The position numbers were made by a program, and so were the translations under genes. A model generated the notes under the pieces. It made no database searches. It saw only the letters and a list, made by a program, of their open reading frames with translations, and was not told where the DNA came from. A stretch of 64,000 nucleotides of DNA from Eukaryota sp. GEM-RC1 (lineage: Eukaryota), in the NCBI GenBank assembly GCA_040285855.1, contig JAUFOQ010000002.1, forward strand, positions 2,852,001 to 2,916,000, read 5' to 3'. This document shows positions 2,769-49,663 of the stretch, piece by piece (position 1 is the stretch's first letter; the number at the start of each line of letters is the position of its first letter).

Positions 2769-2799
2769 GAATCTGAGAAGATGTCTAACAAATTCTAAG

Positions 2800-2875
2800 A
2801 TTCAATAATGCTACAGATTCACTGTAGTAAATACTATGACTATGACAAATAACTGGGTCTAACTCCTAGACCCCG
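2800..2875 (-). ncRNA. Candidate Fanzor omegaRNA scaffold (3' part), overlapping the end of the ORF
   Basis: Hairpin gggtcta-5nt-tagaccc (2855-2873) in the last codons and ctacag-5nt-ctgtag (2811-2827) after the stop, just inside the putative element end. This is where TnpB/Fanzor omegaRNAs lie. Confidence 0.5.
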
Positions 2876-4935
2876 CTCCAAATGATGCTCCACAATGGTC
2901 TTGATGTTGATACATGCTAACTTGTTACGATTCCAAACCTTGGCACTACCATGACATTCTTCTCTACATTCTTGGGACTTGCATCTCAACAAAGCGTGAC
3001 ACTTTACCAGAGGTTTCTTCTCTCTTTCCATGGTTTTGGATTACTGATTTCTTTGAACACTTTAACGGGCTTCCAACAAGTAGGACACTTTGAAGAAGTG
3101 TAACTCTCATCTACGAGAACAAGGTTGTAACCATTTCTCTTAAAGAAGTTTCTCCACATCACACCTCTACTTGATCGGAGGTGTTTTAGGTTATGCCTCT
3201 TATTACCATTGTCACCAAACATCAATACACAGTCATTTTTATTCCATCCTTTTGCAGTCATATTTTTCAACAACTTATTTTCTGTTTTTTGAATATGGAC
3301 GTATCTTTGCATTTTTGAATGCGCCATATCATCAAACAGTAGTAATTAAATGTTGATTCAATAACTGTAAGTTTGGAACTCACATAGTCATAGAAGGTTT
3401 CATAAAGAGTGGACTTTGAATTTTCTTTTGACAACTGTTTTTCCATCTTGGAGAATGAATTCTTTTTTCTTTTCTCTTCTAAACTTTTGATGAACTCTGG
3501 ACAATCTCGACCATTCTGTCTCTGTCAATCTTAGCCACTCGTATTCTTTGTTTCTCATTTCACGAGCAGAATTTTCAGGCTTTCTTATTTTTTCTGAGCA
3601 GAAGTAGAGTAAATCCTTCTTGCCAGGATCAATGTAAACTTTTGTTTTCAATGAAAACTCTTCAACATCATAGTCTTGAACATATTCTTCTTTACTGGAG
3701 AACTTTACACTGTCTGGTTTAAAGGACATTCCCACACAGTCCTCTCTGGTAAGTTCAACACAGGCAGAGAAACCATCAGTTTTAATGGTATTGTTAAACT
3801 TATAACCTTTCTTTATAAATGGACGATTAAAGTTGAAAAAGTAAGACCAGAATTGATTTTGTTCAGCAGGAGACATTCTTTGAATTTCATCTTTTGAATT
3901 CCACTCAGACATTTTCTTCTTGACATTCACTTGTTTTGTTGACAAAGTGGAACGTAATATTCCCCAAAGACCTTGTGTGTCTATTTCAAAGAAACCTGGT
4001 GTGACGTGACGAACAATAGGAATTACATTGTAAGCACTTGCTCCTTCACTTTCAAGATAGTTATTTATTTGAATGGCAGATTTAATAAAGGATTGAGGAT
4101 GTTCACGAACTGATTTTAGTAGAGATTTAACGACTTTCTTTTATAAACACCATTAGCATTTTGAACATCAATTGATGGTGGGAAGAGAACATCAATAAAA
4201 TATTTATCTCTAAACAATCCTTCAACATAGTCGTTAGTTGCCCATAGAAGTTTAATTTTACCTGCAATGTTCAAACTTCTATTACTGTCGTCTTGAAGAA
4301 TTTCTGTATTACATCTTTGAATAAATTGTTTTATTTCTGCACGGGTTTTTGGAATGTCATTTCTGTTACCTTCAAGAAAGACATTTTTAACTTGTCTAAG
4401 TCTCCAACGAAAAACAGACTGTTCTTTTTTTTGACATTGTTTCTTCTTGATCACTCTTTTGAAAATAAACATTAATAAATTTGTCAATGTATTGAGCATA
4501 TCGCATTTTAATGTTTGTGTCCAAATTCGATTTAATAGTTTCACCAACCATTGCCATAAGCCGTGAGGAATGAGCAGCTGGAAAGAGTGGAATTCCTCCA
4601 TTGTTGAGCATTACTTGTTTGTATTCTTCTAAAACAAAGTTTTTCAAGTGTTCATTAAATGCAGGAGCTCGTCCTTGATTACATAATTCAATCTCATTAT
4701 GTTCAGCAGAGATGTTTCTTAACAGAGTTTGAATATGCTCTACTTCTTTCCTTGTAATTAAAGGTAATTTTTTACCATTCTTATCCATGTGTAATAAAAA
4801 CAGCTTCAAACAATAGGAAGTGTGCATTCTAAGTTTGTGAACCAATTGAGCATAATAATCGAGTAATAACGTTAATCCAAAATGTTTAACAATAGACTTT
4901 AGTCCAATTTTATGTGTTACAAAAGTTGGACGAAT
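2840..4935 (-). CDS. Fanzor1 (TnpB-like RNA-guided nuclease) domain
   Basis: HKIGLKSIVK N-terminus, FFEIDT, FWSYFFN, IKTDGFSACV, RuvC-I YIDPGKKDLL, VLMFGDNG, VDESYTSSKCPTC, HALLRCKSQEC, WNRNKLACINI, RPSYLS end. Confidence 0.9.
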
Positions 4936-7900
4936 GATTTTATTTGATTGAAACAATAAAAACAACTTCAATGCTAGTACACTATCTTTGAAGCAATAGT
5001 TCACAACTTCTTGAGGTTTTTCAACAACACAATCAATAGGCAATAAGTGGTGAAATTCGTCATGAAGACGTCCTTTAGATTCGTTTAATAAAAACCAACT
5101 TAATGATCTTAAAGACTTTGAACATTTTGAAACAATAAATTGCTTAGCATAGACGTATGAATCACATACAATTCTACCAGCCCATTCAGAACAAACTTTC
5201 TGCCATAGAGATGATAAATGAGCTTTAGTTGTTTCATCTAGCATTGGTTCTGGAAAGTCGACTCCAAGTGTAACAATCCTGTTGCCTAAAACAACATTAT
5301 CGAAGTCAGTTATGTTAAATCCAGTTAAAACTGACGCATTTTTATCATTCAAATAGTTGACAAAAACTCTAGTAACTGTTTTTCGTTTTCAAAAAATCGA
5401 AGGTTTCTAGAATCAGGTGGCAGTTCAACATCAGATTCATGAGTCAACTCTAAAGTTGCAACAAAATTGTCTTGAAGGTAAAATTGATCTTTTATAAAAT
5501 GACCAAACACTCCAGAAATCATAAAAACTTGTTGGTTTTGAATCCACACTTCTTTTCTGCATCACTTTTCATTTTGAGAGATTCATTCTCGTTCTTTCTT
5601 TGATCATCCAACTCCTTTGTAAGTGTTTCTGCAGGGATTTGATCAATTTCTCTAGTTTCAATATCAAAAGACAATATAGAACAATGATTAGAGTTATTTG
5701 GTAATTGAGAATGTTTGAGAAACTCAATCATTTGTTTTTTAGGAGGTTTCAAACTCTTTGTCGCATTTGACACTCCACTTGCTTTTGGTTTGGTGGTTTT
5801 CCTTTTGGCAACTGTTGTTTTTCTATTTCCTGTTGCTGTTGTTGGTTCAGTGGTGTCAGATGATTCAATTGCTTCTGTTGCTTCTGTTGCTTCTGTTGTA
5901 TCAGGTTTTTCACAAGCAGCAACATTTATTTTTGGAGTTGGTAAATTTATTTCTGGAAGATCTGTTAACTCTGGACGACTAAAGTTATGATAACTTTCTT
6001 GAAATAATTCTTCAGCTTCTTCCAGCGCTTGTTCAATCATTTTTAACTTCAAAAGACGCTTCTTTTCCGATTAGACAAATTTCCAGGTAAACTTTTGAGA
6101 AAGTTTTGATAAGTGAGCTTTGATACCGTTTCCTTGTAACTACTATCATCTACCATTGTTTCAGGAGTTGAACTTTCAGATTGACACTGTACAGGTTGAT
6201 TAACAGGTGATTCAATCTCATCAGAATAAAACTCATTTAAAATACCTTGAGCATGAGTACATACATATTGTCGGTATTCATCAGGGTGATCTTCATCAGG
6301 GTGAGTAGTAACGATTTGAGACAATATTTGTTTTCTCATTTCTAAGGCATTACAAACAACACAATTAGAGACTTTAGACAGAATTTCGAAAAGATTTGTT
6401 GATGTTGATTCACACTCGACAAATTTATTCATATAAATTAGAATAAATGGACCACAGTCATTAAGAGTTTGGACTTGTTGAACTGGTACTCTAGCTATAT
6501 AGCTGAAATTTGCCATATCAAACAGGAATTGCTGTAATTGTGAAATGACTTTGTCAATACGTGATAAAGTGCTAGAAAACTGAGAATGTTGATCTTCTGT
6601 ACACATTGAGTCAATAGAGAATTATTGTTTGTTTTCAATATCACAGATTAACAGTGACCAGTGAGTGGCTGTTGTACCAAAGAGACCGTCATGTATTGGA
6701 ATAAACAAGAAACGTTTCTTACACTCTTTAGTGTGTCTTTTACTGGACTTTTCCATTGATAATTGAACTTCTCTAAATTGTTCAAACATTATGTTATATT
6801 GTGAAAGATTAATAGCATCTTGAATGTTGGCTACTTCAAAGAACTCGCATAGATTACTCTTTTCAGCAATGTACTGACCAACAAAAGTCAATGACAGAAT
6901 CATGAAGCAGCACATTGGGTTTCAGAGTGTCAATTTGATCAGATCTTAGTAAAAGTGGTCTAGGACGAGATTGTGTTAGAATTCCACGATGTTGATGTTG
7001 TAAGATTTGATATTTTTGAGAAAATTTCTTCTTTTTTGGAGGATATTTTCTAGATTGACGAGTTTTTCTTGTACGATTTGAGTCTATAAGTTGATTGGGC
7101 ATAGTCAATGGCACTTGTCGAGTTTCATCAGGAGATGAAACTACTGTTGGATGTTCGGCTATTTCAGAAGTACCAGCAGATCTATTCATTTGTTGTTGCA
7201 AAAATGTAGAATGAACTATGGCACTGTGTTCTTGAACATGTGCTTGAATGTTGTTTGAAAAGCACTCATGTACAATACTTACAGCAAGTATAGCAAAAGG
7301 AATAGGATGCGTGGTTGCTATCAGATTTAGAACTTGTTTTCTCATTTCAAAAGCATCATAATCAACATAACCTTGGACTTGAGACATAATTTCCTGGAAA
7401 TTGTCAGATAATGATGCCAAATGAACAAATCTTTGCATATACATTAAGATATATGGTCCACAGTCGTTGGGAGTTTGATGTTTAATAACTGGAAGCTTTC
7501 CTAAATTTGAGAAATTTCCAATATCACGCAAATATACCTGTAAAGTACTTACAACTTGATCATTTTGAGTTGAAACGTCAAATGAAAGTTGAATTGAACT
7601 GTCAGTGTACATTGGATCAAGTGAAGAAAATGATGTACTATCAATGTCACAAACAAGTAGAGTCCAATGAGTTGCTGTACCACCAAAGACACCATCGTTT
7701 ATTGGAATAAATAAAAACCTTTTCCCAGTCTCTCGCATTGAATTCTGAACATTTAGAAATTCAAGAGCTAATGTGTCAAAATCGCCATAACTCACTGCAG
7801 CATGAAGATTCCCGATAAGGAAAAACTGGCATAACTCACTATTCTCGGTGATGTACTCACCATAAAAGTCAACAACAGAATGATCGAGCCATACGGAGGG

Positions 7901-8092
7901 CTTCAATGTGGTAATTCCTTCCTCAGTGACAAAAGGACCAGGGTTTGACTCTATGTCTCCATCCGTGGTTAAATCATGAACAAACTGTGATGACGGTTGG
8001 TTCAAATGACTATTGAGAAATGACGAGTGATAGTGCGAGTAACTTAATCCTGTTACTATCACCCGAAACACTTTGCAGTGTTTGGAAAGCAT
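2840..8092 (-). CDS. Polyprotein: 2A leader, Ulp1, Ulp1, linker, PolB-type 3'-5' exonuclease, Fanzor1 (about 10 frameshifts)
   Basis: Ten abutting or overlapping ORFs from 6863-8182 down to 2840-3031 join by small frameshifts, mostly 1 nt, e.g. T5 at ~5365 and A8 at ~4428. The breaks fall inside domains. First in-frame ATG at 8092. Confidence 0.75.
4950..5690 (-). CDS. DEDDy 3'-5' exonuclease domain of family-B DNA polymerase type (no polymerase domain)
   Basis: ExoI ILSFDIETR, FENEKQLLEF, ExoII LTGFNITDFD, VCDSY, SLRSLSWFLLNESK, ExoIII NYCFKDSVLALKLF. ExoII/III share ORF 4396-5352 with the Fanzor N-terminus. Confidence 0.85.
6300..6950 (-). CDS. Ulp1/SENP-like C48 cysteine protease domain, copy 2
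   Basis: TLKPNVLLHDSVIDF, FLFIPIHD, THWSLL, SIDSM, QQVQTLNDCGPFI. Catalytic H, D and C plus oxyanion Q are present. Two frameshifts. Confidence 0.85.
7310..7930 (-). CDS. Ulp1/SENP-like C48 cysteine protease domain, copy 1
   Basis: TLKPSVWLDHSVVDFY, FLFIPIND, THWTLL, SLDPM, HQTPNDCGPYI. Confidence 0.9.
7934..7975 (-). other. 2A/StopGo ribosome-skipping peptide DLTTDGDIESNPG/P
   Basis: Exact match to D(V/I)ExNPGP, directly before the first Ulp1 domain. Confidence 0.9.
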
Positions 8093-8167
8093 CAAATAAG
8101 AAGAAAAAGGTGATAGTGCGAGTAACTTAATCCTGTTACTATCACCCGAAACACTTTGCAGTGTTTG
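8027..8167 (-). repeat. Two identical 58-bp copies (8027-8084, 8110-8167) of a two-hairpin structured motif
   Basis: Sense strand aaacact-gcaa-agtgttt cgg gtgatagt-AACAGGATTAAGTTACTCGC-actatcac, present twice with an 83-bp period. Confidence 0.9.
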
Positions 8168-8219: not shown

Positions 8220-8661
8220 CTGATGTTGACACTGACAACTTGACATTATGGCATCTTCATCATATGTTGTACTGGTCTTCTCTTCATGAACACACCTCCC
8301 TATCATCTTAATAGGTGAAGATCCTTTCAATCGTGATCTTTTACTGTGTTTATTTAGCTTCTTCAAAACAGAAGTTCATTTTGACTACAGCTAACTCCAC
8401 CATCATATGCACTCTGTCAGAACTCTTCTCATCTTCACACTTTTGAATGAAAGATTGGGACTGTTTTGATTCAAATGCAAGAAATTGGACACATCATGGT
8501 CATACTCACTCCAACACGTCCCAAATATTAAAGATTTGAACTGAGTTATAGTTTAAAATATTTACACTTACTTTTGTTGAGCACCGCAATGACATTCATA
8601 TAAATAAAACAAAACATAAGAACTACTGCTACATTTTCAACACATAGATGTTGATTTTGTT

Positions 8662-8783
8662 CAACATTTGTAATGACAATATTTGTAGATACAACATTTG
8701 TAATGACAATATTTGTAGATACAATATTTGTAGATATAATATTTGTAATGACAACATTTGTAGATACAATATTTGTAATGACA
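8662..8783. repeat. 15-bp minisatellite, 8 copies
   Basis: Units caa(c/t)atttgta(atga/gata). Confidence 0.9.
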
Positions 8784-8914
8784 CTCACTAAAATCTTGAT
8801 CTAGGGTACAGGTCATTGAAAAAAACGATGAAAGTGCAAAAACAAACAAATAATACAAAGATTAAATCCATTTATAAAACAAAAAATTAAAACACAACAA
8901 CAACTACTGATCTG

Positions 8915-11900
8915 CTACATTTTCCCCAAATTTGGGGAACACTTCCCCAAACCTTCAGCATTGACATCAACAATCTCATCTGATACTTGAGAATCATGTG
9001 CAGTCGGCCGACGACGTTGAATTTGGTCTAATTCAGATTCGTAATCGTTAGTAGAAGCTGAATAGTAATCCACTAAACTCTCCCAAAGCAGATTTGTTCG
9101 TAAAAGCTTTTCATGTCCACATATAAAATTACTAAACCTGCTTCTGGTCAGCATAATATTTATTCTTCGCTCATCTGTCAAAAAACCTAGACTTTGAGTA
9201 ATGTTGCCTTCTTGATAGGATCTCACTGTACTGATAAATACAAAATCTACTTCTTTTCCCTGAAATGCGTCAGTTGTTGATATCTGTACATTGTCTAAAG
9301 GTGGTTCAATAGAGTCAAACAATTGTCTGAGTTGATCAACCTGTGCCCTGTAAGGTGTCAACACTGCCACACTAAATGAACGCTTGAGAACTTTTTCCAA
9401 TGCATCTTTGTGATCCTTCAAAAAATCACAAACTCCTTTAATAACAGCAATGGCTTCGTGTTCGTTGAATAAACTACCTGCCAATTTTTCTGAATAATCT
9501 TGAATTGACCCCCATGTGTTTACAAAATGTCTTTTGGCACATGTCAATTGTTCACCAGTGATTGGTTCCACAGTGTCAATTTGATCACTGTAAAACATTG
9601 AATTAGAAAATGCCCACAATTCTGAGAATTGACGATATTGTGGATTCAGTAGTGTGTAGCGTTCTCTATCAAAGTGATGTGCCAAATCAGATTGATCAAT
9701 CAATCTTTCCATCAAAGACTTGGACAACCCTGGGTTTTGATTGAAGACTACAGGGGGTAATTGTTTATGATCTCCAACAATTACAATGGTTGTAAATTCA
9801 TTACAAATTCATAACGCAGCCACTAGTTCAGGCTCAGTTGACTGGCAAGCCTCATCAATAATTAAAAGTTGTGGTTTAAAAATACCTTTATTCCTGTAAC
9901 TGCTCGCTCCTGCTAATGTTGTGAAGAGAACATCATATTCTTTAGAAATCCACGAAAGATCATCCTTTTCTTCTTCCCTCATCTTGAGCAGCAGGTGTAG
10001 TGGTATGTGGCTGACCATGTTTAATATTCCTTCTTGGTTGTTTAAGTGGAGGAAGTCTGACAGCTTGTTGATCTAATAAATCTTGAGCATCTTGTTCATC
10101 TTGTTTTTCAGCTTCTTCTTTTGCTTGCTTTTGTTCTAACTTTGTACTTAACAAGAACGGTTGAACTTCTGGTAAAGGATGTAATTGAGAACTTATTCGC
10201 ATCAATTTTTGTTCATCAACTGAATGTTCATCAACTAGCTTGGCTAATATTACGTCAACTGCATTATTCGATGGAGCAGCTACCCAAACCTTGCATTTGT
10301 TAGACAAAAAGACATAATCAATTTGACAATGGTCGTTGTTTTCCCTGTACCAGGTGCTCCATGAATCACATATAGACCATGGGAAGTTACATGCAATTTT
10401 CTAATTTCTTCAATTGCCTTTTTTTTGACAGTCATTTAAATTTTGACAGAGTTCTGAATCAGTTTTAAAACTTAAACAACTTGGTAGTTGTGGTGCTTTA
10501 GGAATAATTCCTAACTGGTATTGAACACGTAGAGGAATTTCTAAATCCACCATGGCAGAAATTTGGCGCAAAAAGTGACTACCAGAACCGATTTTGACTG
10601 CAAACAGTACAGTAAGTGGGCAAATAGGGTCTTGGGTAATTACAGACATCTTTGACCATTGAGTTGTCTTTGATAGTCGATGACATTTACTGACTATTGC
10701 AAAATGAACATTGAGACTTGCAGCCATCACGTCAGCCAGAGATCCAATCATAAAAATATCTGATTCACCAACATGCTCACATTGTCGAACATTAGACAAA
10801 AATTCTTGAAAAGCCTGATGAACATTGACTTCACACATTGGTAGATCCTTGGAAATACCTCTATTCAAAAAAGTTTTACAACCATTAATATTTGGCCTAC
10901 TGGTGGGATTCTTCGTTCTATCAGCTAATAATATTCGAATATTAGTCACAAATCCCACTTCTTGTTCGACTGATTGTTGTAAAGAATAAACCATCAAGAG
11001 ATCTTGTTTGTTGAAATTTTTGAATCCGAGACAGCATGAAGATGTTACTTCGTCCAGAATTCAATCAATCCAGTCAGCCGAATATTTGGTTTGTAAATTC
11101 AATTTTGCTCTGAAATTAATTTTCATTTCATCTGGCATCTTGAATCTAGAATCATCTTGAGCTATTTCTTTGTCTTCAGCTGATTCTGTATCTTCGATTG
11201 CTTGTTTTTTGGAACTCCACCACATGAACATTAGTGGTACAAAAAGACTACTGACCGGAGTTTTTCTAGGTCGTTGGATCTGGGACGTTTGATTTGTCGT
11301 CTGAGGTTTTTTTCTGAAAAATTTCTTACCAAAAAGAAACGATGAAGTATTAGGCTCGACTTTATCTTTCAAATTCAATAAAAATAGTAGTTCTTTTTGA
11401 GTTGACGAAGAAAATTGTTGCTCTTCATCTTCAGACCAAAATGGAACAACCTGTCTTTGAATGAACCTATCTGATTTGGGAAGAGGATCAATACCAGTGG
11501 CGAGAACAGTGTAGCAATTACTCAGAGACAGCTGGTCGTCTGGTGGGGATCTTTCTAATTCAGGATCTTCAGGATCGTGTTCAGTCATTGTCTTGATAGT
11601 TTGTTTTGCAAACTGTACAGCTTCTTCATGGGTGTTACATCTGGCTGTGGTAGTTTGTAAAATCCCAAGCCATTGAGACTGGAAGTGTAACGGTTCATCA
11701 TACTTGATCCAATATTATGGTTGTTCCTTGTCGATGGATACAAATGCATGGCATCCCGCTTTCTGGTTGGGTCGGATTCTTCTTTTGTCTTGTTCCGTGG
11801 ACCTGGATCAGATTCAATGTCTCCACAAAGCGTAAGATCAATCTTGAAAAGAACATACAGCGAGTAACTCAATCCTGTTTGTATGCTCTTAATAGCCTTA

Positions 11901-11956
11901 TGGCTATTGGGGGATAGAAAGGTGAAAGGAGGCTCTTCTAACCTATAGAGTTCCAT
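8915..11956 (-). CDS. 2A-led Upf1/DNA2/NAM7-like SF1 helicase (frameshifted)
   Basis: Walker A IHGAPGTGKTTT (~10335-10370), VAAPSNNAVD, IIDEACQ, VGDHKQLPP (~9755-9780), SLMERL, LNPQYR, LTPYRAQV, TTDAFQGKEVD, FLTDERRINIMLTRSR. About 6 frameshifts. Confidence 0.88.
11798..11839 (-). other. 2A-like peptide DLTLCGDIESDPG/P (N to D variant)
   Basis: Matches 2A except DPGP replaces NPGP (gat vs aat). Lies at the N-terminus of the helicase ORF. Confidence 0.75.
11851..11908 (-). promoter_or_regulatory. Third, diverged copy of the two-hairpin motif, before the helicase 2A
   Basis: Sense strand aatagcc-ataa-ggctatt aa gagcataca-AACAGGATTGAGTTACTCGC-tgtatgttc. Same geometry as the other copies with different, still paired, stems. 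Confidence 0.75.
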
Positions 11957-12005
11957 ATAGAGTGTGGAAACACTTATTTTGAGTTCTTAATCACCCACTT
12001 CTTTA

Positions 12006-12603
12006 ATGTCATTCGAGTCCTTAGAATCTGAATACGACAAACTTATAGAACTTCTTTCTAATGTGAGCGATCCATCAGGAAATCTTCCGGATTCATCTTC
12101 TCCTGAATTCCTTCAACTTCTAAACCAAATCAATAAAGTCACTTGGCCTCTGCAGCAGGACGCTGTTAAAGCAATTCAATTAGGCTTGGAATACCAAGAA
12201 CTTGGAGAAGTAGCTCGCAATGTACACTCTCAGTTATCATCACTCAGAATTCGAGCCAATGTTCTGCAACGTGAACATGACCGTCTAGCTAGTGAGATTT
12301 CTAATCCCCTTGATGACCATCGTGATCTCATCCCACCAGAACTTCACCCCATTGACAACAAAGCCGAGCTGTTTGCAATCATGGATTATTATGATGTAAA
12401 AAAAATGTGATGCAAAATTGAAGTTGCTGGACATGCCGCCAGAACTCGATCCGCTTGATAATCCAGATGCGGTGGCTGCTTGGTTGAGAACACAAATTTT
12501 CCTACGGAGGCAAAAACAGCAGATGAAACTGCCAGAGCCCCAAAGAAAATTGGGGAAAAAGGCCAGCCAAGTAAAGAAAAAACGTATGAATTATAAACTT
12601 TAA
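12006..12603 (+). CDS. Small helical protein of unknown function within the element
   Basis: ORFs 12006-12410 and 12418-12603 join by deleting one A in the A8 run at ~12400. Internal repeat PPELHPIDN / PPELDPLDN and a basic C-terminus. Confidence 0.6.
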
Positions 12604-12854
12604 TAAAAATTTAATTTTAAGTTTATCATAGTCTATCATAGTAACACTTTACATGACTGAAAAGTGTAAAACACCAACAAATTTACGACCAATCTCCATT
12701 CCTGCAACCTAGAACATAAATCTGCCGTGCTAATCTAATCCCAGCTACAACCGTCGTTAGCTAACCTGAATTAAAACAAAAAAAAGGTATCTAAAAAGGT
12801 ATGTAATCAAGTATCAAATTCAAAACAGTCAATTTCTAAGCACTTTAACTCCAA

Positions 12855-14943
12855 ATGCCAATGTCGACTAAACCATCCGCTGTTGCAGCAATGTCTAGGC
12901 ACTCAATGGCTCAGCTTCTAGAAGGTTTTAAAAAAGCCTTAGTCGACACTTCTGAGTCATCATCAACCAATGACTTCATTCATGATCTCCTTAAAGATCC
13001 TCAGTCTATGCAAGTTAATCGCTGTACCCGATATATCAACCAAGTCTTTCGTTATGTAGAAAGTCCTCCAGAAAGTCGTGGAACTCTCATCAACCCTCAA
13101 CAATTCGTCTATTCTCTTGTTGAACTCACCATTGCCTCTTATGGACTCTCTCCTGACTCTTTTGCAGCAGTAGAACATGCAATAGAAGACTACATTTTCC
13201 CTCAAATCTATACTAAACTGCTTCCTCTTTGTTTCAGTGATGATGATCTCGTAATGCAAACACAATATGAACGCTTCTCTTCCATCACACAAGACCAACT
13301 CAAAATAGACTCGTCAATGATCGATGAATCCCTTTCTCCTTGGTCACACGCCATCGCCAAGCTTTCTACCCTCCCTCTAACCCCTTCTCCCACACGTAAA
13401 CTCTTCGTGATCCTTTCTGCTGCTCAATCAATCTATACGAATCCAAACATTGAAGGTGATACCAGCATTGGAGCTGATGTTTTTGTTCCTATATTTATCT
13501 ATGTCATTGTCAAGTCCAAAATTCCCAATCTATGGGCCGAGATCAAGTTTATTCACGAGTACGGCGCAGAACGTCATTTTCAAGGAGAACTCGGATATTA
13601 CTTTGTCACTCTAGAATTCTGTTCAAAGTACATACTTGACTTAACCTCTGATAAACTAGAGCCAATGTCTGATGAAGCTTTGTTGTTTCAAGCCTCTACT
13701 TGGTTAGTTGCAGAGAAACATCGGTTTCAGCAATGGTCGGTGAACTTTGGTTATGTATCTGTGTTGGATAATGTTGTTTTGAAAGGTGTTGTACCCGTCG
13801 TCCTATCTAAGTTTGTATTAAACAGAGCTTGCCCTTGGAGCGTTGTGCTGAAGGAAACTGGAAGGGAAGAGGACCAAGTAGACTTGTTGTTGATGAGAGC
13901 GAAGATTTCGAACCTCACTACTGCACAACAGTTGACCATACGTAAGATGTTCTTCGAACCCCAGACTTATGCTGAGCCTTTGTCTACGATATCGACTGGA
14001 TTTGGGTCGACGATTGTGATTGATCCTAAATCAGAAATGATGGAAGAGCTCGGAGCAATCGTACTACCCACGTCTTCTGTTGATCAGTCACTAGTCAGCG
14101 TTAGGAACATTCTGATACTAAAGTTACTTGGAATTGATTGTGGTCACGTTTCTGATTGGTCGAAAGTACCTCAATCAGCTGTGATCTCTTTTAGAGAAAC
14201 CTTTGCTGCCCCGCCTTATGTTCCTTTAACTGATTCTATTGGGGGAGTACTTACCGAGTTTCAGATTTATCTTAAGGCTTTTGATTGCCTGCCATTGATT
14301 GCCCCTCTCACTGCTGAGCCAGACACACCTTCCTATCACGGAGTTTTGAGGTTTTTAACCCTTTACAATGGTGATAATGAAACTGGATATGGAAATATGT
14401 TTGGAATTGCTCCTTGTAAATTTAATGTAAATTTAAAATATTCTGAATATACTGGGTATGATATCAGTAGGAACGTGTTTTCTTTCCCGCACGTTGAAGG
14501 TGCTCCAACGATTTTCCCTTTTTCTTTCACAATTCTGCAATGTTTAAGATCTCTAACTACCGTTGTGCGATCTCATTTAGATATGTTGGGGTTTGCTATT
14601 CCAAATCCCGTGACTTCTTTGCGGAATTTTTGAAAAAATGGAGGAATTTCAGGAAGCTGCGTCTGGAATTACTGTACGTAATGGAGTTTTGAATTCAAAA
14701 ACATTGCTCCGAATTATGGAGCTGATAACTGAAGAAAACTCTGATGAAAGGAAGGAATTGAAAGCTAAGAAGCTCAAAAGTAAACGTGTTAATGACGTTT
14801 CAGTAGTTGAATTACGTAGATTTTCATGTAGCAGAAATGCCAGACTTTCTGAATCTTCTCAACGAAGTTCCGTTGATGTTGAAGGATCGAGGTTTCCACC
14901 GATTAGTTTGATTCCAGTACCTCCTCAAAGTAGAAATGAGTAG
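12855..14943 (+). CDS. VPS9-domain protein (Rab5-family GEF)
   Basis: SPTRKL, IGADVFVPIFIYVIVK, GELGYYFVTLE. The C-terminus continues after a shift at a T/A run (~14630). Confidence 0.85.
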
Positions 14944-17291: not shown

Positions 17292-18095
17292 TCAATCAGA
17301 AATAACAACCACGTCATCATCATCATCATCATCGTTATCTTCCACTTCTGATTCCTTTTCCACTCTCTTAACCTTCCAAAAAGGTGACAACGAAGGAGAA
17401 GACGATGGTATCGGCGTGGCTAACTTTGTAAACGTGACCTCCTCATCGGTAAATGAATAACCACATCTAGTTAATAGATCGTGGAAGTTAGTGCAACCAT
17501 ACTGTTCACTCCAGAATCTTCCATCAGTTGCATCAATGATCCTATCCTCAAGAACCTTGGGGGAGCACTTTTGGGTAATGTGATTGTCTATGAGCTTTTG
17601 GGCATCGTCCAGAGGTAGTAGATTCTTTCCGAGTAAAGTGTCCTCAGTAATAAACCTGCACGCAGATTTAGAGTAAAATTTTGAAGTTTTCGGGCTTCCA
17701 ACTACTACGACATTGACTCCATACTGGCGAAGACGTCGAACAAGGAAGTAAAAGTCACTATCACCCGAAGCTAAGATGATTCTTAGAGGAGTGTCTCTAT
17801 TTTGGAAATAGTGATCTAAAACATCAATCATGATTAGACTGTCGGTTGAGTTCTTGTGATTGGAAGGAGGTTGTACAATGATAGGTGAGAGGCCGGCATT
17901 GTGACAGGCAGAAGACCAAGCTTTGAAGTTGTTCTGTTGAATATGGTTTTGTCGTCTGTTGGCAGCAAATAGAGTAACGTATGCATATATGTTGGGTCTG
18001 GGTCCAAATTTGCACTTGAGAGCAGCAAGAAAGTTGGAAGCAACATTTGATGAAAAATTGTCACAATCAATATAAATAAGAGTGTTTAGAGACAT
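17292..18095 (-). CDS. NYN (LabA/DUF88 PIN-fold) ribonuclease with possible OST-HTH domain
   Basis: IYIDCDN, KNSTDSLIMID, ILASGDSDF, LRQYGVNVVVVG, YGCTNFHDLL. Confidence 0.85.
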   Translation of the reverse strand: MSLNTLIYIDCDNFSSNVASNFLAALKCKFGPRPNIYAYVTLFAANRRQNHIQQNNFKAWSSACHNAGLSPIIVQPPSNHKNSTDSLIMIDVLDHYFQNRDTPLRIILASGDSDFYFLVRRLRQYGVNVVVVGSPKTSKFYSKSACRFITEDTLLGKNLLPLDDAQKLIDNHITQKCSPKVLEDRIIDATDGRFWSEQYGCTNFHDLLTRCGYSFTDEEVTFTKLATPIPSSSPSLSPFWKVKRVEKESEVEDNDDDDDDDVVVISD

Positions 18096-22776: not shown

Positions 22777-24060
22777 CTTTTCAAGATTTCTGGTTGTTTG
22801 GGATTTTACAAATGAAGTGTTTTTAAACACTCTAGTGGTGTTTTTTAACATCCACAAATTTCTGTATAATTTAGGTGTTTTTTAATACTTGTAGAAGTTT
22901 TAGTTTCTGATTTTAGGTATTTTTGTATTTGGTGTTGTTCAATACCAATTTCCGAGTGTTTTTCAACAGTTCGTGTTTCAGCATTTTGTGCTTGTAAATA
23001 AAAGGTATGTACAACAGTTGTTTTGTAATTATTTGGGTTACATATTTTTTCAAAACTGAATTTGTGATGATATCATAGATGTAAAAGCATAGCTTGAAAT
23101 GAACAGACAGGGGTTTATGATCAGTCAGTGAAATAAATGCATTTGCAGAAGTTAAATTAACATTACCACTAATTTCCTCATTTTAAAGATGAATCTGTAC
23201 GACTATTAAAGTATCATTCGTGATTTGTTTCCAAGCCTTACATGTCAAGTTAGCAGGTTGTATAGCTCTGTCGTATCATTCAAGAAAATGAAAAACTGTC
23301 GAAATCCCAGTAGTATATGTAATGTAATGATATTTTGACACAGAAAAGGATTGTTCCAACTTTCCTATTTTTCTAACATTGTGGACATGGTAGAAACAAT
23401 AGTTGAGTTTCTTCTTCATAACTTCAAGGTACGACAAAAAGTCGGCAGTGACAAGTATATTTATCTATTACTCAATACTGCTCTCCAATGGTTCATCGAG
23501 TGTATACAGACACTATACATTTAGCAGTCTTGTAAAGTTTTGGTTGAAACTCCCAATGATTCCTAGTGGTCTTGGAGTATTTCCATTCCTATAATGGAAA
23601 CGTTTCCGAAAAACAGAATTGGGAGTCAACAAACAACTTGATTATTCAAAAAAAATAACAGATTTTGAATGTGCGTAAGTACATTTAAATTATGAGTCAG
23701 TGAATGTCTAAAATTCTTCAAAAACGGAGTACCTTACTGTTGTCTTAAAATTGAATCCAGAAATTGGTTTTGGTGACTTCGGTTTCACATTCAACGTGGA
23801 GTACTTGTTATACGCATTTATACTTTCGAAATAAGCTACTTGAGAACTTTGTGAATATTGTTTGGAGAATATATTTTACTACATGTAGTAGTACATTATT
23901 GGTGACACTTGCTCTTGGAAAATTAGAAATTGTGGATTTGATTATTGACTTCGATTTCCAATAATTTGTTATCACTTGGAAGTCATTGTGAAGTTAAGGC
24001 GGTATAATACTAGTATTTACATAATGAGAATTTGGACTTTAAGGATATTGATCAATACTA

Positions 24061-24619
24061 CACTCTTCACAACAATTAGTCTGAATCAGACGAATTATGT
24101 ATGTCCATTGAAACATTACCAAACAATAATTTGTTTGATTCAGAGTAATTAGTGATTCAGACTAATAAATGTCTCGGAAAATTAGTCTGAATCAGAGTAA
24201 TTATGAATATTCATATTTAGTCTGAATCAATATCCCAAACACAAAAACTATCTTGATCCTCAAATCATGTTATGTCTTCATAAATGTTATGTTATACATC
24301 AGGATCGTTGTTGGTACCTTAAATAGAAGTATAAGACCGAAGAAATTGAGAAACAGGACTGATCGGCCATCGAAGTACCTCTTCAAAATTGATTAGTGAC
24401 CGAATTGTCTTCCAAACAAGTGCCAATAATGCATGACACGGGCTGTATATGGAAATTCAACCAAAGTGTCTCGAAAGAAAAGTGAAAAAAGGGATATATA
24501 ACACAATTTTGCTCAAAAGTATTGGATACTCCTAAGGTGGTCAAACAATAATTAGTTTGATTCAGACTAATAAGTGATTCAGACTAATTTTGAATTCAGA
24601 CTAATTGTTGTGAAGAGTG
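24061..24619. mobile_element. Tc1/mariner-type MITE
   Basis: Perfect TIR cactcttcacaacaattagtctgaat, TA duplication (24059-60, 24620-21), internal repeats of attagtctgaatca. Confidence 0.88.
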
Positions 24620-25399
24620 TAGCATTAGTAATTCTATTAGTAATTTGTTCTGAAGATAGGACCTTTTACAAAGTATCGGTCCAATAACTACCATAGCTGT
24701 TTTCATACAATAGCAAAACCCTCATGTCTGTTGTCAACAAATTTTTGCCGACGAAAGGAAAGTGTCACCATTTTTTCGCAATGTTTCAACAGTAGATCCA
24801 AGTGCTCAAACTTATGTTAACGGATTAAATGCAAAGGTTTCATTCACCTAGAAACAGCCTAAAAACGTAAAATTGATTTGTATTCCAAAGATGTTTCTAA
24901 ACTCAATCAAAAAGTATCTTCAAAATTTGTATTTTTCCATTTGCTATTTCTATTTTTGTTAGTATTGGTGAAATGGCTTCTCAGTTTTTAACTGATTTTG
25001 GATCTATGTGTAAGTCTCAGAGTAAGAGATTTAAGTTATCAATTTGGCACAACCGTTTGATTTATTCTTTGTTCCGTTCGATACCTCAGTTTTATAAATC
25101 AATCACAACAAAGCTGTATAAAAACTGTGGTACTGTTGACGAACAATTTTCTGTGTCTAGTGTTTCTTAGCTTCTTTTATGATGTGTTTTTTTGTACCCT
25201 TCAACGATAAACTGTTTTCGTCGAAAACCAAAATTCTGAAAGATTATAGTGTTTGTCACCTCATTTTTGCACAACTGTTTTGTGCAAGAGATTAATAAAC
25301 AGTTTTATTCATGATAAGGACAAACATATAGTAAATTATATATATTTTAACACTGTTTTTTATTGACAACAACACTACAGTGTACATCCATCTAACAAT

Positions 25400-25700
25400 C
25401 AATATCCTCAAAGTCTAGATTACCTATCTGGAAATTCTCACCAACCTTATCCTCATAATGTCTGCCAAGAGATAATAAAGCGCTAGATACTGAACACAAT
25501 TCGCAAACACAATTCGATTTTTCCAAAATCTAAGATCAAAAGTCGTAGATGGTTTTTCTTTAACAATCTTCACAAAGATTTCAAGTAATGAGGTTGCCAA
25601 TTCACCTAAAGAACCCTACAGTGAAAATACAAAAGGGTACAACAAGTAATTCGACTGTGAAACCGAATTCAATAATTTCAATTTTCCATTACATTTTTCA
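25400..25700 (-). mobile_element. 3' fragment of an RLE-type non-LTR retrotransposon
   Basis: YPFVFSL*GSLG...FWKNRIVF, similar to the fragments at 48631-48957 and 49382-49627. Confidence 0.6.
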
Positions 25701-25999
25701 CCAATGAATAAAGGGTTTGTAGCATTAGATTTAGCAAGTTTCTTGTTGGAATCATTACAAACATCGATAGACATAACATCAGCAATAATGAATGATCCAT
25801 TAAGACCAGGAATATTCAGTATATTATACAGTATACAAAAGTTACCCGACCAACAGTACCACATTTCTCAACATAACTTGCAACAATGTGTTTCAAACCA
25901 ACGAAGGATAAATGATGTCAGCTCAAGTCACGAATGTTCTGATGTTCAAAGTGTCAGACTTTGTCAAACTATTTTTGAACCTGAATTTTGGTCCTTTCC

Positions 26000-32820: not shown

Positions 32821-34639
32821 GTTTTTGTGACTAGTTCATTTTGTAAAATGTTTTGGTGTTTTTACCGGTTTTTGTATTTTTTATTATGATGATAAATGAG
32901 GTTTTCCACAATATTTTAATTCTTTGTGACCAGTTATCAGATTTCAGACAGCTTCTCATTTATCTAATGTACTAGGATTTTTTCACGGAGTGACTGAGAT
33001 CTCGATCAGGAGGAACTATTGTGGTCTTCATGTTGGTTCAGAATATGGTAAGAATTTGTAGGAAGTGTATCTGTTTGGGTACCGTATAAAGTCTTTATAT
33101 TGGTACAAAAGTTCAACAATGTTGACTTGCTAAGTCATTTGAGTCTTTTTCACAGAAAAATACTTGTATTTGAAGAGAGAGTTCACTATTCTGCTTACAT
33201 TATTCTGTTTTATGTGTTTCAACTTGAGAATTTGAAAGATGAATGTAATGATGTGATTAGTATTGGTGATGAAAGCAACTTTCATTACTTAGAAACTCTA
33301 ATGAAAATTTTGAAACCGTGCTTTTTCTAGTAGTTGATGCTCTCTCCTTTAAAACAAAGCCTCTTGTTTTTAATCTAGTTGGAGGAAAGTATTGAACTTT
33401 CTGTCATTATGTACAAATGTTGGACTAACATACTCTTAAATGTAACCCTTCCATTCCGTACAGGTTATGAATTGTTTATAACAAATATTAATGATTCCTA
33501 ATGTGTGATGAGACTCACCAATGCAGAAACACTACTAGTACTATCACGGACAAATTATTAATAAATTGTTAATTGTATCGTTCAGGACGTTCCAGCAGTT
33601 AAAGCCATGTAACTAACTTCGATCTCTGCAATACAACTGAGGTACACTGTTTGTGTGCTGCTACCATGTTCACTGATACAACAAAACGATATCAATCAGC
33701 ATACACGAAGATCCTATTGTGAGTAAACGGCTGTTCTAATAGAGTTTATAAAGGTTGTATCACGAGGCTACTTCAATGATGGAAATGCTCTCAGAACTAC
33801 GTCTGTTTAGATCTTATACTCCATTAAGGATGATCAGATCGGTGGACTTCAAGTAATATTGTTCTTGCTGTAAACTCATTATCGACAAAGTGCACAGTAA
33901 CAGAAAAAGAGGACTTATACTCATATGTTTGGTGTTAGATAAACTAAAGATGAGATGCTGGAGAGAAATGCAGCAGTCAGAGATCTAATTTCATCGATCG
34001 TACAAGCATTTTAACTACTTTATTCCCTTGCAAAGTCGAACTGAAAACCAAGAGTTCAAAGAAGTCGATCAGGTTGAACTACAAGTGATTTGCAGGTTAT
34101 GAGCTTCATGAAAATATTTATTAATCTGGACTGTTTTTTGCGGTGAATACTTGAGAAATTGGTGCATTTTTTCGTCTGTTTATTTGAGGTTGACTGGAGT
34201 TCTGAGACTTTACATGATTGGATACTGAATCAATTCTACCTGAAGTAACATTTCTTACATGCAAAGTTTGCACCCTATTCCTATGGCCACACCATTCAAG
34301 AAGAATGTATAGTATTTGAAGGGGTGTAACACGTTTGATCGTTTCGACTTTCTTGTTGGATCTTTAATTACTTTATACAAACATAATAAGCACGATGTTG
34401 ACAAATTCTACTTTTAAGCATACTTGGAAAATACAAATACATGTGCTGTATTTTTTTTGTATTTTTGTATTTTTGTAGTTTCTCAGACTCAATAAATGCT
34501 GTATTTTTTGTATTTTTTTATGCTAAATTAATACTGTATTTTCTGTATTTTTATGGACACTGGAAAATGGTTCTCTACTGAATTTCTGGTTCGCCATCTG
34601 GAAATAAATCTGACCACAAATTGGAGTCAAGATTATTAA

Positions 34640-34825
34640 CCTCTTCCGCAAAAATTTGGGCCGGAAAATTCGGTGATTTTTCAGCAGTTAAAACTATTTA
34701 CCCATCTTTTTTCGGTCCAAATGAATAATAGTGGAATTTACACATGCAGTACAATTTCCCTATCTTTTTTCGCCACCATCTTTTTCGCCACCACTATTAT
34801 TCGGCCCAAATTTTTGCAGAAGAGG
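34640..34825. mobile_element. piggyBac-type MITE
   Basis: TIR cctctt(c/c)(c/t)gcaaaaatttgggccg matching 23/24, flanked by TTAA at 34636-39 and 34826-29. Confidence 0.85.
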
Positions 34826-36427
34826 TTAATTGAGTCGTAAAGACTAATTGACCATGCACAAGGTGTGAGAAGTTAAAAATCTTTTGTTTTCCACAACCAA
34901 GAACAACGATTCAGAAATTCAAACAAAAATTCTCCAAAGACTCCAAAAAGGCACATTCATTCATGTATTCGTTGCTTTGGATCTTTTAGAAGCATGGTCA
35001 AATTGTAGATCTGGATTTTGGTAAACAAGTGTCGTTGGCAATGCTTCCATTATGTTTTGGTGGTGATATACAATTTGGACGTGGTTTTCCACCTAAACAA
35101 ACTCTGGATGTACCTCGAAATTTCAATTCAATGTGTACCAATTTTGTGCCAACGGCAGTACTTTACAACTATTGTAGTCTTATTTAGGGAGGAGTTGTTC
35201 TAACCCAACACAAAAACCTTTTTGTTACCATCTTTGTCATGTATTAAAGCAACTAAGAGACCACCTGAAAAACCCTTCAAACTACAGCGATCGATCTCAA
35301 TCTGACCGTTGGTATCTCTTTTGATCTTAGCACGAGAAACAACTGGTTCCACAGTTGTGCCAAACGGATGACCAATAAGAAGAACACAATCGTTTTGTTC
35401 ACGAATCATAGCGTATTCCTTAACACTTTCTAAAACTATAAAGTTCCTAGCACTACATGAAAAGTTTAATTAAAGTAACCATACTTTATTTGTAAATTAA
35501 TGAAATTTTGTAATGTACAGAAATTAACAAACTACATGTACATGTATTAGTACTTAAAGATATTAAATGCTCTACATATACTCTACGAACCACGATACAA
35601 TTCGTCCGGAATACGATTTAAATACTTTGGAACACTTCTATACAATGAAAACACAATGCAATTGCACGATAGAGGTTTCTGAAAGAAGATTACGTACACC
35701 CACGAAATGATTTTGAAACAATAATATCAATGAGAATCCTCAGCAACATTACCATGAACGAAAATAATGACTAGACTTTTACTTCGAATCTGACAGAATT
35801 TCGCAGAATTTCTGGAATTCGGGGTTATTGACGACATTAGGAGCAATTCCACAAGATGATAACATATCAACTAAAGCAACATCGCATCTGTCTTTAAATA
35901 TGTCTTTAAGTCTAGTAGCCAACATGTTAAGAGCTAATGACTACTCATGCAAAGTGTACTACACGAACCCATGTGACCATGTTTGTATGGACCATTTGTA
36001 TCAACTTGATTTTAAACAATCTTTAGCTATTGTACCAACTTTTCAGAATTTTCAAATAATATCTTTTCAAGTTTAGTGTGCTTGATTTCCAAAAACTCTA
36101 TTGGTCCTGAAGGTGCCAGAGCATTGGCGGAGTCCTGAAAGTGAATTAAACAATGGTTCAAATTTATCGTGGCAGCTCTATCGACACTGAAGGTCCTAGA
36201 CAGTACATATGGATGCAAATGTGTAGCACACAACTCCATTGTACATCATGATATAGCACTACTTTCAGTGATTTCTCACAACTCAAGAAAAACTGATGTG
36301 CTCGTATTGTAAAAGAAATTGACGACTCAGTAAACACAAAATAGTGGTGTGATGTCAATTATTGAATTCTGTTGAATTCCGAATCTCTTGATGACTTTCT
36401 GGTCACGAAAATTAGAAATCACTCCTA

Positions 36428-41485: not shown

Positions 41486-41592
41486 TAGGGCTCCCAATTC
41501 ACCCGGGTGGGGTCACCCCAACCTCAATCTTTGAGAATAACCCGGGTGACCCCAAACCTAAAACCGGGTGAAGTCACCCGGCTCACCCAGGA
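41486..41592. repeat. GC-rich cacccgg/ccgggtg repeat cluster, probable transposon end
   Basis: tagggctc followed by several direct and inverted cacccgg motifs. No partner end found. Confidence 0.4.
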
Positions 41593-42067: not shown

Positions 42068-42837
42068 CATAGCTGTCAAATACAACCAACACGTGTTTGA
42101 AAAATACAAAAATACAAAAATACACACGAAAATACAAAAATACAAGTAATACAAATTGATTTATTAAAAACTATAACTATTTGTTGTTTGTTGCTCAAAT
42201 TATTGGAATAAGCTAAGTAGGTTTGTGACTACAATACTCTTGAGTTAGAAAACTGATTCTTCACTTTCTAACAGATTTTCGTCTTCTCTCATCTTCATAA
42301 TACGTGATCTATTTTTACGCCGTGGCTTTCCAGCTTCAGGGGAGAAACAATTCATTATTAGATCACTGCTATATATTGGGAGGTCCCTTTGGGGTTGCTG
42401 ATAGCAACCATACTCCAAAGAGGATTCCCACCCTTGACGTGACGTAAAGAACAGTTGACAGGGGGGGTTTTACTAGGAGAGGGTTGTATCATAATTGTTG
42501 AGAGAAGTAATTTACCAACTGTGAAAGCACCAACAATAATTATTGTTGGTGCTTTCACCAATGGAATGAAGAAAAGCTTGTTTATTGATCTATACAAGAA
42601 AGAAGAGATACTGCCACGTCACTATTCACTAACACTGTATTAGCAGTAGCAGAGATGTTACCGCAACAACTAGAATCAAATTTATGAACCAATGCCGTTA
42701 GTTGATTGATCTACACATACTAACCATGGCTTTCAACGGTTTAGATAGTACAATCAGAGAAATATTGAAATCTAGCGAAATTCGTTCAAAAATACAAAAT
42801 ACACTAAAAATACACAAAAGTGTATTTTTCAGCTATG
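42068..42837. mobile_element. Probable non-autonomous hAT-like element
   Basis: Inverted ends catagctgtcaaatac / gtatttttcagctatg; aaaatac repeats at both subtermini. Confidence 0.5.
42521..42558. repeat. Perfect 38-bp palindrome
   Basis: gtgaaagcaccaacaataattattgttggtgctttcac equals its own reverse complement. Confidence 0.95.
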
Positions 42838-49627: not shown

Positions 49628-49663
49628 AGTTTTCTTCAATGTAAAGCAAAAAATCTTGAACCA

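Follow-up and report, generated by a model that had tools for sequence, protein, structure and literature searches.

A broken Upf1-family helicase gene as putative optional cargo of a composite Fanzor1 element in a metamonad genome

Introduction

Studies of Fanzors have so far dealt with them as single, compact nucleases. Fanzor1 needs no help to open and cut DNA, also when it carries a D-E-N catalytic triad (PMC11423790), and an association with LINEs is listed for Fanzor1c (PMC10530073 and PMC3627910). In the main text of the Fanzor literature examined, the word 'helicase' is absent, save for two occurrences in PMC3627910. Related features are known from non-LTR retrotransposons, whose ORFs can carry an N-terminal 2A peptide at 40-80 aa (PMC3708506) and which, in NeSL and Utopia, encode an N-terminal Ulp1 (PMC4640811). 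Skipping at a 2A peptide requires the Asn of its motif (PMC12338488 and 10.64898/2026.09.24.754024).

The locus described here lies in 64,000 nucleotides of Eukaryota sp. GEM-RC1 (contig JAUFOQ010000002.1, positions 2,852,001 to 2,916,000), referred to below as the window and numbered from its first nucleotide. Here Fanzor1 belongs to a polyprotein of 1,850 aa, which in one lineage is joined by a Upf1-like helicase under a covarying leader and a 2A; no paper on such an element was found in the literature searched, which consisted mostly of open-access texts without supplements or Repbase. With a probability of about one half, the helicase gene is a broken copy of a multi-copy Upf1-family (SF1B) helicase that is optional cargo of a ~10-kb non-autonomous composite Fanzor1 element, likely clearing the RNA:DNA hybrids of that element. 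A new class of leader RNA or a helicase-assisted Fanzor, if true, would be of consequence both for transposon biology and for editing tools, and even the more modest reading adds a new type of cargo and a cassette design to the Fanzor elements.

The helicase gene

A preliminary description of this DNA treated positions 8915-11956 as one intronless helicase gene with a complete set of SF1 motifs, on the same strand as the Fanzor polyprotein. A single ORF does not span the interval, which comprises six ATG ORFs of 69-265 aa each, and the reading frame is interrupted by four frameshifts (right after the 2A and at ~10422, ~10305 and ~9975) and three in-frame stops (11717, 11063 and 9811). Runs of 8 A and of 5 T are among the sites of the shifts. 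The motif set and the strand were correctly described, as both genes lie on the minus strand and all motifs were located there, spread over two frames, at 10439 (Q), 10363 (I), 10283 (Ia), 9865 (II), 9778 (III), 9640 (IV), 9277 (V) and 9169 (VI). The Upf1-like SF1B core from Q to VI (8915..10439, minus strand; three of the frameshifts and one stop) consists of Pfam AAA_11 and AAA_12, with DEAxQ as motif II and GDxxQL as motif III.

The gene begins on the minus strand at 11585..11956, a 123-aa ORF in the six-frame translation, with an ATG, a short in-frame leader peptide and a 2A-like motif. Between the 2A and the stalk lies a region of ~250 aa (11154..11795, minus strand, containing the stop at 11717) with no usable match in Pfam, NCBIfam or the structure atlas; its first 70 aa are predicted to form three strands and a helix, and the remainder appears to be of low complexity. 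The best folds for its model (pLDDT 59) reach Z ~3 and include the AP2 GCC-box and dsRBD folds. An AP2 or hybrid-binding identity for the first 70 aa, an idea formed by eye, was dropped, as neither Pfam nor fold comparison supported it. The next part (10425..11153, minus strand, with the stop at 11063) probably supplies the stalk and the 1B region found in SF1B helicases: it is 95% identical to the copy P0130, reaches a TM score of 0.54 against a DUF6469+AAA_11 cluster in the structure atlas and aligns weakly with Sen1 (E 0.19). A model made of it (pLDDT 46) gave no informative fold match. Other copies align colinearly with the gene, consistent with its being intronless, and they read through two of the three stops and two of the four frameshifts, which indicates that the ancestor of this helicase was recently intact.

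That the helicase is the host's UPF1, SEN1 or IGHMBP2 orthologue, adjoining a transposon by chance, finds some favour in its best solved-structure matches, UPF1 (98 bits) followed by Sen1-like (93 bits). Against this, at least four near-identical copies exist, 2A-led and broken, and identity does not exceed 36% to anything outside one genome in sequence searches. No Pfam match to the UPF1 zinc-binding, UPF1 1B, SEN1 N-terminal or SMUBP-2 1B domains appeared at E up to 1. The relatives compared ranged from 201 to 2000 aa in protein length, and two quick trees, of 26 and 19 rows hand-picked from ~155 matches, contained no UPF1 row. Within that sample one tree puts the helicase loosely near SEN1-like rows (support 81, on a very long branch), and an AU test opposes nesting with the three SEN1-core rows (p 0.026). 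In both trees the helicase falls outside the IGHMBP2/MOV10 group, with AU p values of 0.11 and 0.20, and TIGR00376 scores 151 bits against a cut-off of 349 on the partial helicase sequence. No subfamily could be assigned to the helicase. Together with the leader in common with the Fanzor gene and the proximity of two of three other copies to Fanzor pieces (see below), the multi-copy state and the lack of a UPF1 or SEN1 N-terminal domain uphold the view that this is not an orthologous host UPF1/SEN1 gene; the host alternative is exceedingly improbable.

The Fanzor polyprotein

The neighbouring gene, on the minus strand and broken in the window, has the order 2A-Ulp1-Ulp1-exonuclease-Fanzor1, and intact 2A-Ulp1-exonuclease-Fanzor1 polyproteins of 1,850 aa occur in the sister species TZLM3-RCL. 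Two broken Ulp1/C48 peptidase domains (6052..7933; Pfam PF02902 twice), which form one ORF in P0206, are followed by a PolB-type 3'-5' exonuclease domain (4950..5555, 3' boundary approximate; PF03104) with its acidic motifs retained. The Fanzor1 nuclease itself (2840..4949, 5' boundary approximate) is likewise broken and carries RuvC motifs DPG, E and RN; this region is 48-57% identical to intact relatives. The relative P0123 aligns with SpuFz1 at E 2e-22 and with PpFz1 at E 1e-21. The features of Fanzor1 were found, namely the RuvC DPG, the alternative Glu, the C4 zinc finger and a third catalytic residue D or N, with RN at this position in all 11 relatives having a C-terminus. A 'nuclease-dead Fanzor' with RN for RD was considered and dropped, since the D-E-N triad is active (PMC11423790). 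The short 3' end of the gene (2800..2840, minus strand), with a 6-bp hairpin at 2811-2827, is a candidate omega-RNA or right end of the element.

A shared leader and 2A

In the helicase gene as in the Fanzor gene, the reading frame opens with a leader peptide and a 2A-like motif. Both genes also contain a structured leader in which a 7-bp hairpin is followed at once by an 11-bp stem enclosing a conserved 20-nt core. On the minus strand, one copy heads the helicase gene (11849..11908) and two head the Fanzor gene: a proximal copy (8024..8083) within the in-frame leader peptide and a distal copy (8107..8166) in an 83-nt tandem duplication. The helicase leader and the proximal Fanzor leader form all 18 pairs, the distal copy 17 of 18. 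Between the first two, 19 of 20 core positions are identical, and 11 pairs differ on both sides yet still pair; such divergence with the structure kept implies selection. The pattern fits five positions in 128,000 (both strands), three of which are these leaders, and a covariance model built from the three recovers those three alone within the window.

A search of positions 1-25000 with the Rfam covariance models gave no match for the leaders at E ≤ 1. Compared by eye with the HDV, hammerhead, twister, pistol, hatchet and hairpin ribozyme cores, the leader resembles none to our knowledge. The core had no matches in viral contigs; two matches in metagenome contigs were set aside as chance, lacking flanking stems and lying in prokaryote-like DNA.

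The claim that both genes follow the same leader design is therefore borne out for the structured motif and, in part, for the 2A. The Fanzor gene has a canonical 2A ending in DIESNPGP (7934..7980, minus strand), which agrees with the consensus D(V/I)ExNPGP, but that of the helicase gene ends in DIESDPGP (11798..11845, minus strand). Because Asp replaces the Asn of the motif, the helicase 2A of the window is predicted to be inactive.

Copies and linkage

Three further helicase copies, 92-96% identical, are named in the GEM-RC1 genome. In two of them the accession number precedes that of a Fanzor-polyprotein piece by three (KAL0232982 before KAL0232985, and KAL0233308 before KAL0233311), a proximity with a chance probability of 0.003-0.009; counting the window, three of the four known helicase copies adjoin Fanzor. 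For the third, KAL0232582, no Fanzor piece is listed up to a distance of 262 numbers. In the other direction, a helicase is listed within four numbers of just 2 of the 25 Fanzor pieces named in GEM-RC1. These counts use accession numbers of annotated fragments rather than DNA, with strands unseen, so that masked or unannotated pieces escape them, and repeats were masked before gene calling (PMC11316075). In TZLM3-RCL, with 23 named Fanzor pieces, sequence searches revealed no close helicase. Four Fanzor copies (P0133, P0200, P0205 and P0206) carry the same 2A behind a different leader. Viral contigs contained no loci related to the Fanzor polyprotein or the helicase, and no phage match was found.

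The linkage is one-way: the helicase tends to sit by Fanzor, and Fanzor is mostly without a listed helicase. Co-occurrence, which had been proposed as a check, thus holds when counted from the helicase but not from Fanzor. The recurrence of the pair and the common leader with its 11 compensatory pairs favour the assignment of both genes to one element, as the preliminary description held, and with the helicase as cargo; the scarcity of listed helicases, the copies with another leader and the sister species, where no close helicase was found, argue that this cargo is optional.

The same evidence bears on a functional partnership, in which the Fanzor R-loop would recruit the helicase, and this, together with the 3'-5' exonuclease of the polyprotein, would extend unwinding or resection in the manner of Cas3 or CasDinG. 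The shared leader and 2A design, the proximity of most helicase copies to Fanzor and the retained exonuclease motifs are in its favour, as is P0149, a TZLM3-RCL gene model in which a DEAH helicase and a 5'-cut Fanzor polyprotein are joined in one reading frame. P0149 stands alone as a model, however, and could reflect an insertion downstream of a host gene, and no helicase of the present kind was found for most Fanzor copies or in the sister species. As most Fanzor copies lack a listed helicase, several carry another leader, Fz1, which unwinds DNA itself, needs no helicase (PMC11423790) and the present copy is broken, with a 2A predicted to be inactive, the partnership put forward earlier is weakened and now appears decidedly unlikely. 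Doubtful to the same degree is a multi-gene guided system of Fanzor1, SUMO proteases and exonuclease with a Upf1-like helicase acting in trans at the R-loop, both switched on by a new, possibly self-cleaving class of structured leader coupled to 2A.

Mode of mobilisation

The composite element was likely mobilised by retrotransposition. Clusters of related pieces grow towards the 3' end (Fanzor core 12, second Ulp1 10, first Ulp1 3, helicase pieces 2, 2, 1 and 1), counts that depend on how ORFs broke, and some relatives begin mid-linker. The N-terminal 2A and Ulp1 recall non-LTR elements. RT/RLE-like fragments, which we take to be CRE-like from the appearance of their motifs, are numerous in the window (RVT_1 match weak, E 0.0098). 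No inverted match longer than 9 nt, as expected for a TIR transposon, was found between the 3' zone and 11950-12860, both ends of the element being candidates. Just behind the helicase lies a 49-nt stretch (8822..8870, minus strand) that matches the end of a LINE-like fragment, comprising its stop codon and 3' flank (47976-48024), at 88% identity (62.6 bits, against 27.4 for the second-best match). It may, however, be a separate tiny LINE insertion. The spacer before the Fanzor gene also contains a 15-nt tandem repeat (8632..8807).

Other observations fit retro-copying less well. At the Fanzor 3' end neither a poly(A) tail nor a LINE-like end was seen, and a candidate target-site duplication (2789..2799, partner 12830-12840, 10 of 11 identical) is not above chance, as 39 of 150 shuffles match as well. 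Upstream of the helicase, a frameshifted divergent 199-aa ORF with weak coiled-coil matches (12006..12603, plus strand) probably belongs to the element because a second copy exists (P0216, 94-96% identical), but a divergent gene is unusual within a retro-copy, and P0216, like KAL0232582, has no listed Fanzor piece close by, which counts against the linkage. Homopolymer spectra did not distinguish the element from host genes.

Truncation at the 5' end also fits Helitron2-type Fanzor1 elements (PMC3627910). The helicase could accordingly be cargo of a Helitron2-like, rolling-circle DNA element copied from its 3' end, with the leaders as hairpins of single-stranded DNA ends and the helicase replacing Pif1 in strand displacement. 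Chlamydomonas Fanzor1 Helitron2 elements are 5'-truncated and 3'-rich, with 7-19-bp target-site duplications (PMC3627910), the candidate 3' end is preceded at a distance of 11 nt by a 6-bp hairpin, and a divergent gene is easily carried as DNA. Yet no Rep/HUH or Pif1 profile was found among the window ORFs scanned, the leaders lie within reading frames, in the same frame ahead of the 2A, one of them is ~920 nt inside the candidate end, and their G-U pairs fit RNA. Such a carrier is possible, though on balance unlikely.

The LINE-like 3' end right after the helicase stop also suits two independent retro-cassettes, leader-2A-helicase-LINE tail and leader-2A-Fanzor, that met once and were then co-copied, the helicase decaying with no role for Fanzor. 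Seven breaks in 3 kb with a spoiled 2A, the copy without a listed Fanzor and the fact that the helicase copies are no more than 92-96% identical and known from one genome only in the searches made agree with this. On the other hand, all catalytic motifs are kept despite the very long branch, the ancestor was recently intact, and the leaders imply selection; such a history is quite improbable.

If the helicase is optional cargo of a retro-mobilised element, the leader would act at the RNA level, as a signal for initiation or for processing of the 5' end, and the 2A would remove whichever leader peptide precedes it, so that leaders and cargo genes become exchangeable as cassettes. Copying would proceed 3'-first, most likely in trans by the RT of the host's abundant RLE-type LINEs, which would leave the Fanzor end common and the helicase end often lost. 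Fanzor1 would find and cut its targets alone, without the helicase, which would be an ATP-driven 5'-3' motor stripping RNA from a hybrid, either a reverse-transcription intermediate or a spent guide R-loop.

Comparison with known systems

The helicases of Cas3 and CasDinG systems are obligately tied to multi-subunit effectors, and Cas3 and DinG are SF2 helicases. As in those systems, a guide-bound effector, a nuclease and a helicase occur in one locus here; in contrast, the present helicase is SF1B and missing from most Fanzor copies. Among non-LTR elements, L1Tc carries a 5' ribozyme. L1Tc/Ingi, CR1/L2/Rex1, NeSL and Utopia share with this locus a structured 5' RNA, a 2A within ~50 aa of the start or an N-terminal Ulp1, whereas here there is no RT or endonuclease, and the leader matches no Rfam family and recurs ahead of two distinct genes.

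An accessory, non-essential SF1 cargo is likewise found in those insect LINEs and LTR elements that carry a viral SF1 helicase (PMC6338049), but there the viral-type helicase is fused to the RT polyprotein, and here a cellular AAA_11/AAA_12 helicase forms its own gene. Helitron RepHel, too, is a mobile-element SF1B helicase, but of Pif1 type and fused to Rep (PMC8788227), and neither Rep nor Pif1 was found here. In the known Fanzor1 transposons (PMC10530073 and PMC3627910), Fanzor1 also lies at the 3' end of multi-copy elements without a transposase of their own; the CRe-1, CRe-2 and CRe-3 Fanzor1 elements (PMC3627910) show the same overabundance of 3' ends. Unlike in those elements, Fanzor1 here comes last in a polyprotein that begins with 2A-Ulp1-Ulp1-exonuclease, and a Upf1-like helicase is encoded by a second gene with a 2A at its head.

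Organization of the two genes

In the window, two genes in the same orientation are each led by a 2A-like motif and share a conserved RNA leader, and they are found together repeatedly. The first, an Upf1-like SF1B helicase gene (8915-11956, minus strand), is identified by Pfam AAA_11 and AAA_12 and by its motif set, in which motifs Q, I, Ia, II, III, IV, V and VI all occur in order. Among solved structures, it matches UPF1 (98 bits), a Sen1-like protein (93), Sen1 (80) and IGHMBP2 (73). The second is a broken 2A-Ulp1-Ulp1-exonuclease-Fanzor gene (2840-8092, minus strand), assigned from domain matches and relatives. An AT-rich 15-nt tandem repeat (8632-8807) lies in the spacer between them.

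The preliminary description of the helicase holds for the complete SF1 motif set, but 8915-11956 is not a single reading frame; it is divided into six ATG ORFs by four frameshifts and three stops. The stops at 11063 and 9811 and the shifts at 10422 and 9975 are read through in other natural helicase copies, while a shift near 10305 is common to the window helicase and one other copy. Two frameshifts coincide with homopolymers, one of 8 and one of 5 bases. Because the named relatives' assemblies are described as R9.4/9.5 Nanopore reads with Illumina correction (PMC11316075), part of the indels may be sequence errors in repeats; the nonsense codons suggest genuine decay. Eleven host ORFs in the window (15.9 kb in total) are unbroken, a control biased by their selection as long ORFs.

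Leader RNA and 2A-like motif

Motif search and a covariance model place three minus-strand copies of a 60-nt leader motif in the window, one before the helicase (11849-11908) and two before the Fanzor polyprotein (8107-8166 and 8024-8083). Each consists of a 7-bp hairpin followed directly by an 11-bp stem enclosing a 20-nt core, with 19 of 20 core positions identical between the two genes. When the helicase leader is compared with the proximal Fanzor leader, 11 of the 18 pairs are altered on both sides and one on one side with pairing kept in all, against at most one double change in slid controls; this covariation comes from two independent sequences only, from which the structure was also derived. 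An Rfam scan of 1-25000 gives no match at the leaders at E values up to 1.

Helicase and Fanzor genes alike open with an in-frame leader peptide that contains the motif and closes with a 2A-like sequence about 53 aa after the ATG. The Fanzor polyprotein 2A is canonical, and the helicase 2A has Asp in place of Asn, a position where substitutions are reported to abolish activity (PMC12338488; 10.64898/2026.09.24.754024), so the helicase 2A of this copy is predicted from its sequence to be inactive. Four Fanzor-polyprotein relatives (P0133, P0200, P0205 and P0206) carry another leader ahead of the same 2A, with tandem repeats in three, which may represent a second structured RNA class.

Origin of the helicase

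Identity of the helicase to anything outside GEM-RC1 is at most 36% (best 120 of 678 matches of 642-2000 aa; 35 matches of 201-641 aa). A Pfam profile search detects no accessory domains of UPF1, SEN1, IGHMBP2 or MOV10. In trees, built from rows without UPF1, the branch of the helicase is very long and has no supported position; the AU test rejects nesting with SEN1 (p 0.026) but not with IGHMBP2 or MOV10. The best match of the probable stalk/1B region appears to be to plant SEN1-like DUF6469 proteins, leaving tree evidence and predicted structure at odds on the subfamily. A viral SF1 identity is ruled out by domain search and by viral-contig and phage comparisons. Searches of Pfam, NCBIfam and the atlas assign no family to the N-terminal 215 aa.

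The Fanzor polyprotein and its linkage to the helicase

Fanzor-polyprotein relatives are named from two metamonad genomes, GEM-RC1 and its sister species TZLM3-RCL; among them are intact proteins of 1,846 and 1,905 aa with identical domain order. The Fanzor part is Fanzor1 (match of relative P0123 to SpuFz1, E 2e-22). Asn occupies its third RuvC position, both in the window gene and in 11 of 11 relatives whose C-terminus is present. GtFz1 is described as active with the same D-E-N triad, and Fz1 proteins as opening DNA unaided (PMC11423790). Relatives P0125, P0147 and P0154, like the window gene at 2840-8092, combine 2A, one or two Ulp1 domains and a PolB-type exonuclease with a Fanzor1 carrying the D-E-N triad; the 2A-Ulp1-exonuclease-Fanzor1 fusion is intact in TZLM3-RCL. 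This fusion is probably of greater interest than the helicase.

At a 5-A run (~3300 in the window), three GEM-RC1 Fanzor proteins (P0121, P0122 and P0142) end in an identical shifted frame, and TZLM3-RCL relatives read through this site; a common assembly error, an inherited lesion and a programmed -1 frameshift are alternative explanations. In the relative P0149 (RCL1_001071), a DEAH-box SF2 helicase and a Fanzor polyprotein cut at its 5' end share one reading frame, either because a helicase was captured independently or through an artefact of the gene model.

The other named helicase pieces (KAL0232582, KAL0232982 and KAL0233308) are all from GEM-RC1 and 92-96% identical. Two of the three lie three accession numbers ahead of a Fanzor-polyprotein piece, a proximity with a chance of 0.003-0.009 given six Fanzor pieces in a 779-number span; for the third, no Fanzor piece is listed within 262 numbers. 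In reverse, only 2 of 25 named GEM-RC1 Fanzor-polyprotein pieces have a listed helicase within four numbers, these counts covering annotated pieces and missing unannotated ones. TZLM3-RCL, with 23 named Fanzor-polyprotein pieces, has no close helicase among the best 120 of 678 matches (642-2000 aa) or the 35 matches of 201-641 aa. Co-occurrence is supported from helicase to Fanzor but not in reverse, and the four 2A-keeping copies with the other leader fit this one-way linkage.

Probable extent and copying of the element

Because a second copy is also present of the divergent ORF lying 50 nt upstream of the helicase, the element probably spans ~2800 to ~12830. This ORF (12006-12603, plus strand) encodes 199 aa with no family match. 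If the element is removed, its two flanking divergent host genes are 45 nt apart, inside the 28-126 nt spacing of five other divergent gene pairs. An 11-nt direct repeat at the element ends is at chance level (39/150 shuffles).

Cluster sizes of 12, 10, 3 and then 1-2 toward the 5' end suggest that the element would be copied 3'-first. A LINE reverse transcriptase acting in trans is the most likely agent, since an N-terminal 2A and Ulp1 are described as non-LTR traits (PMC3708506; PMC4640811), the window is rich in RT/RLE-like fragments, and the helicase is followed by a 49-nt stretch resembling a LINE end. A Helitron2-like route is possible, as an identical truncation pattern is reported there (PMC3627910). 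The 2A would free both proteins of a leader peptide that can vary, in keeping with the exchange of leaders among Fanzor copies.

The RT/RLE-like LINE fragments lie at 24919-25729, 34981-35657, 43003-45200, 48022-49663 and 54088-54162, several of them paired in inverted orientation, such as the arms of 91% identity at 48078-48351 and 49346-49619. Short MITE-like elements with 33-35-nt inverted ends occur at 24054-24626, where a mir-3338 match is spurious, and at 34635-34830. The window also contains a perfect 38-nt palindrome (42521-42558), a GC-rich hairpin pair (41520-41581, minus strand), direct-repeat pairs of 83-89% identity (14720-14961/16887-17126 and 53167-53548/56349-56724), the latter flanking a frameshifted LRR gene with 84-nt repeats (54266-55503), and a stand-alone NYN-domain ribonuclease gene (17292-18095, minus strand), sole member of its cluster.

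Proposed role of the helicase

Motors of the Upf1 family translocate 5'-3' along RNA and separate RNA:DNA hybrids, and the helicase would therefore most likely clear the element's own hybrids. Of the preliminary description, the observation is confirmed in part and the interpretation supported in part. The Cas3/DinG-like role that it suggested requires obligate linkage, and none is seen. As a Fanzor1-bearing variant, the element has an unusual cassette design and an RNA leader outside Rfam, and the locus tables of Fanzor surveys could include the family. For the viral SF1 domains carried by insect retrotransposons, an accessory role like the hybrid-clearing one has been suggested (PMC6338049).
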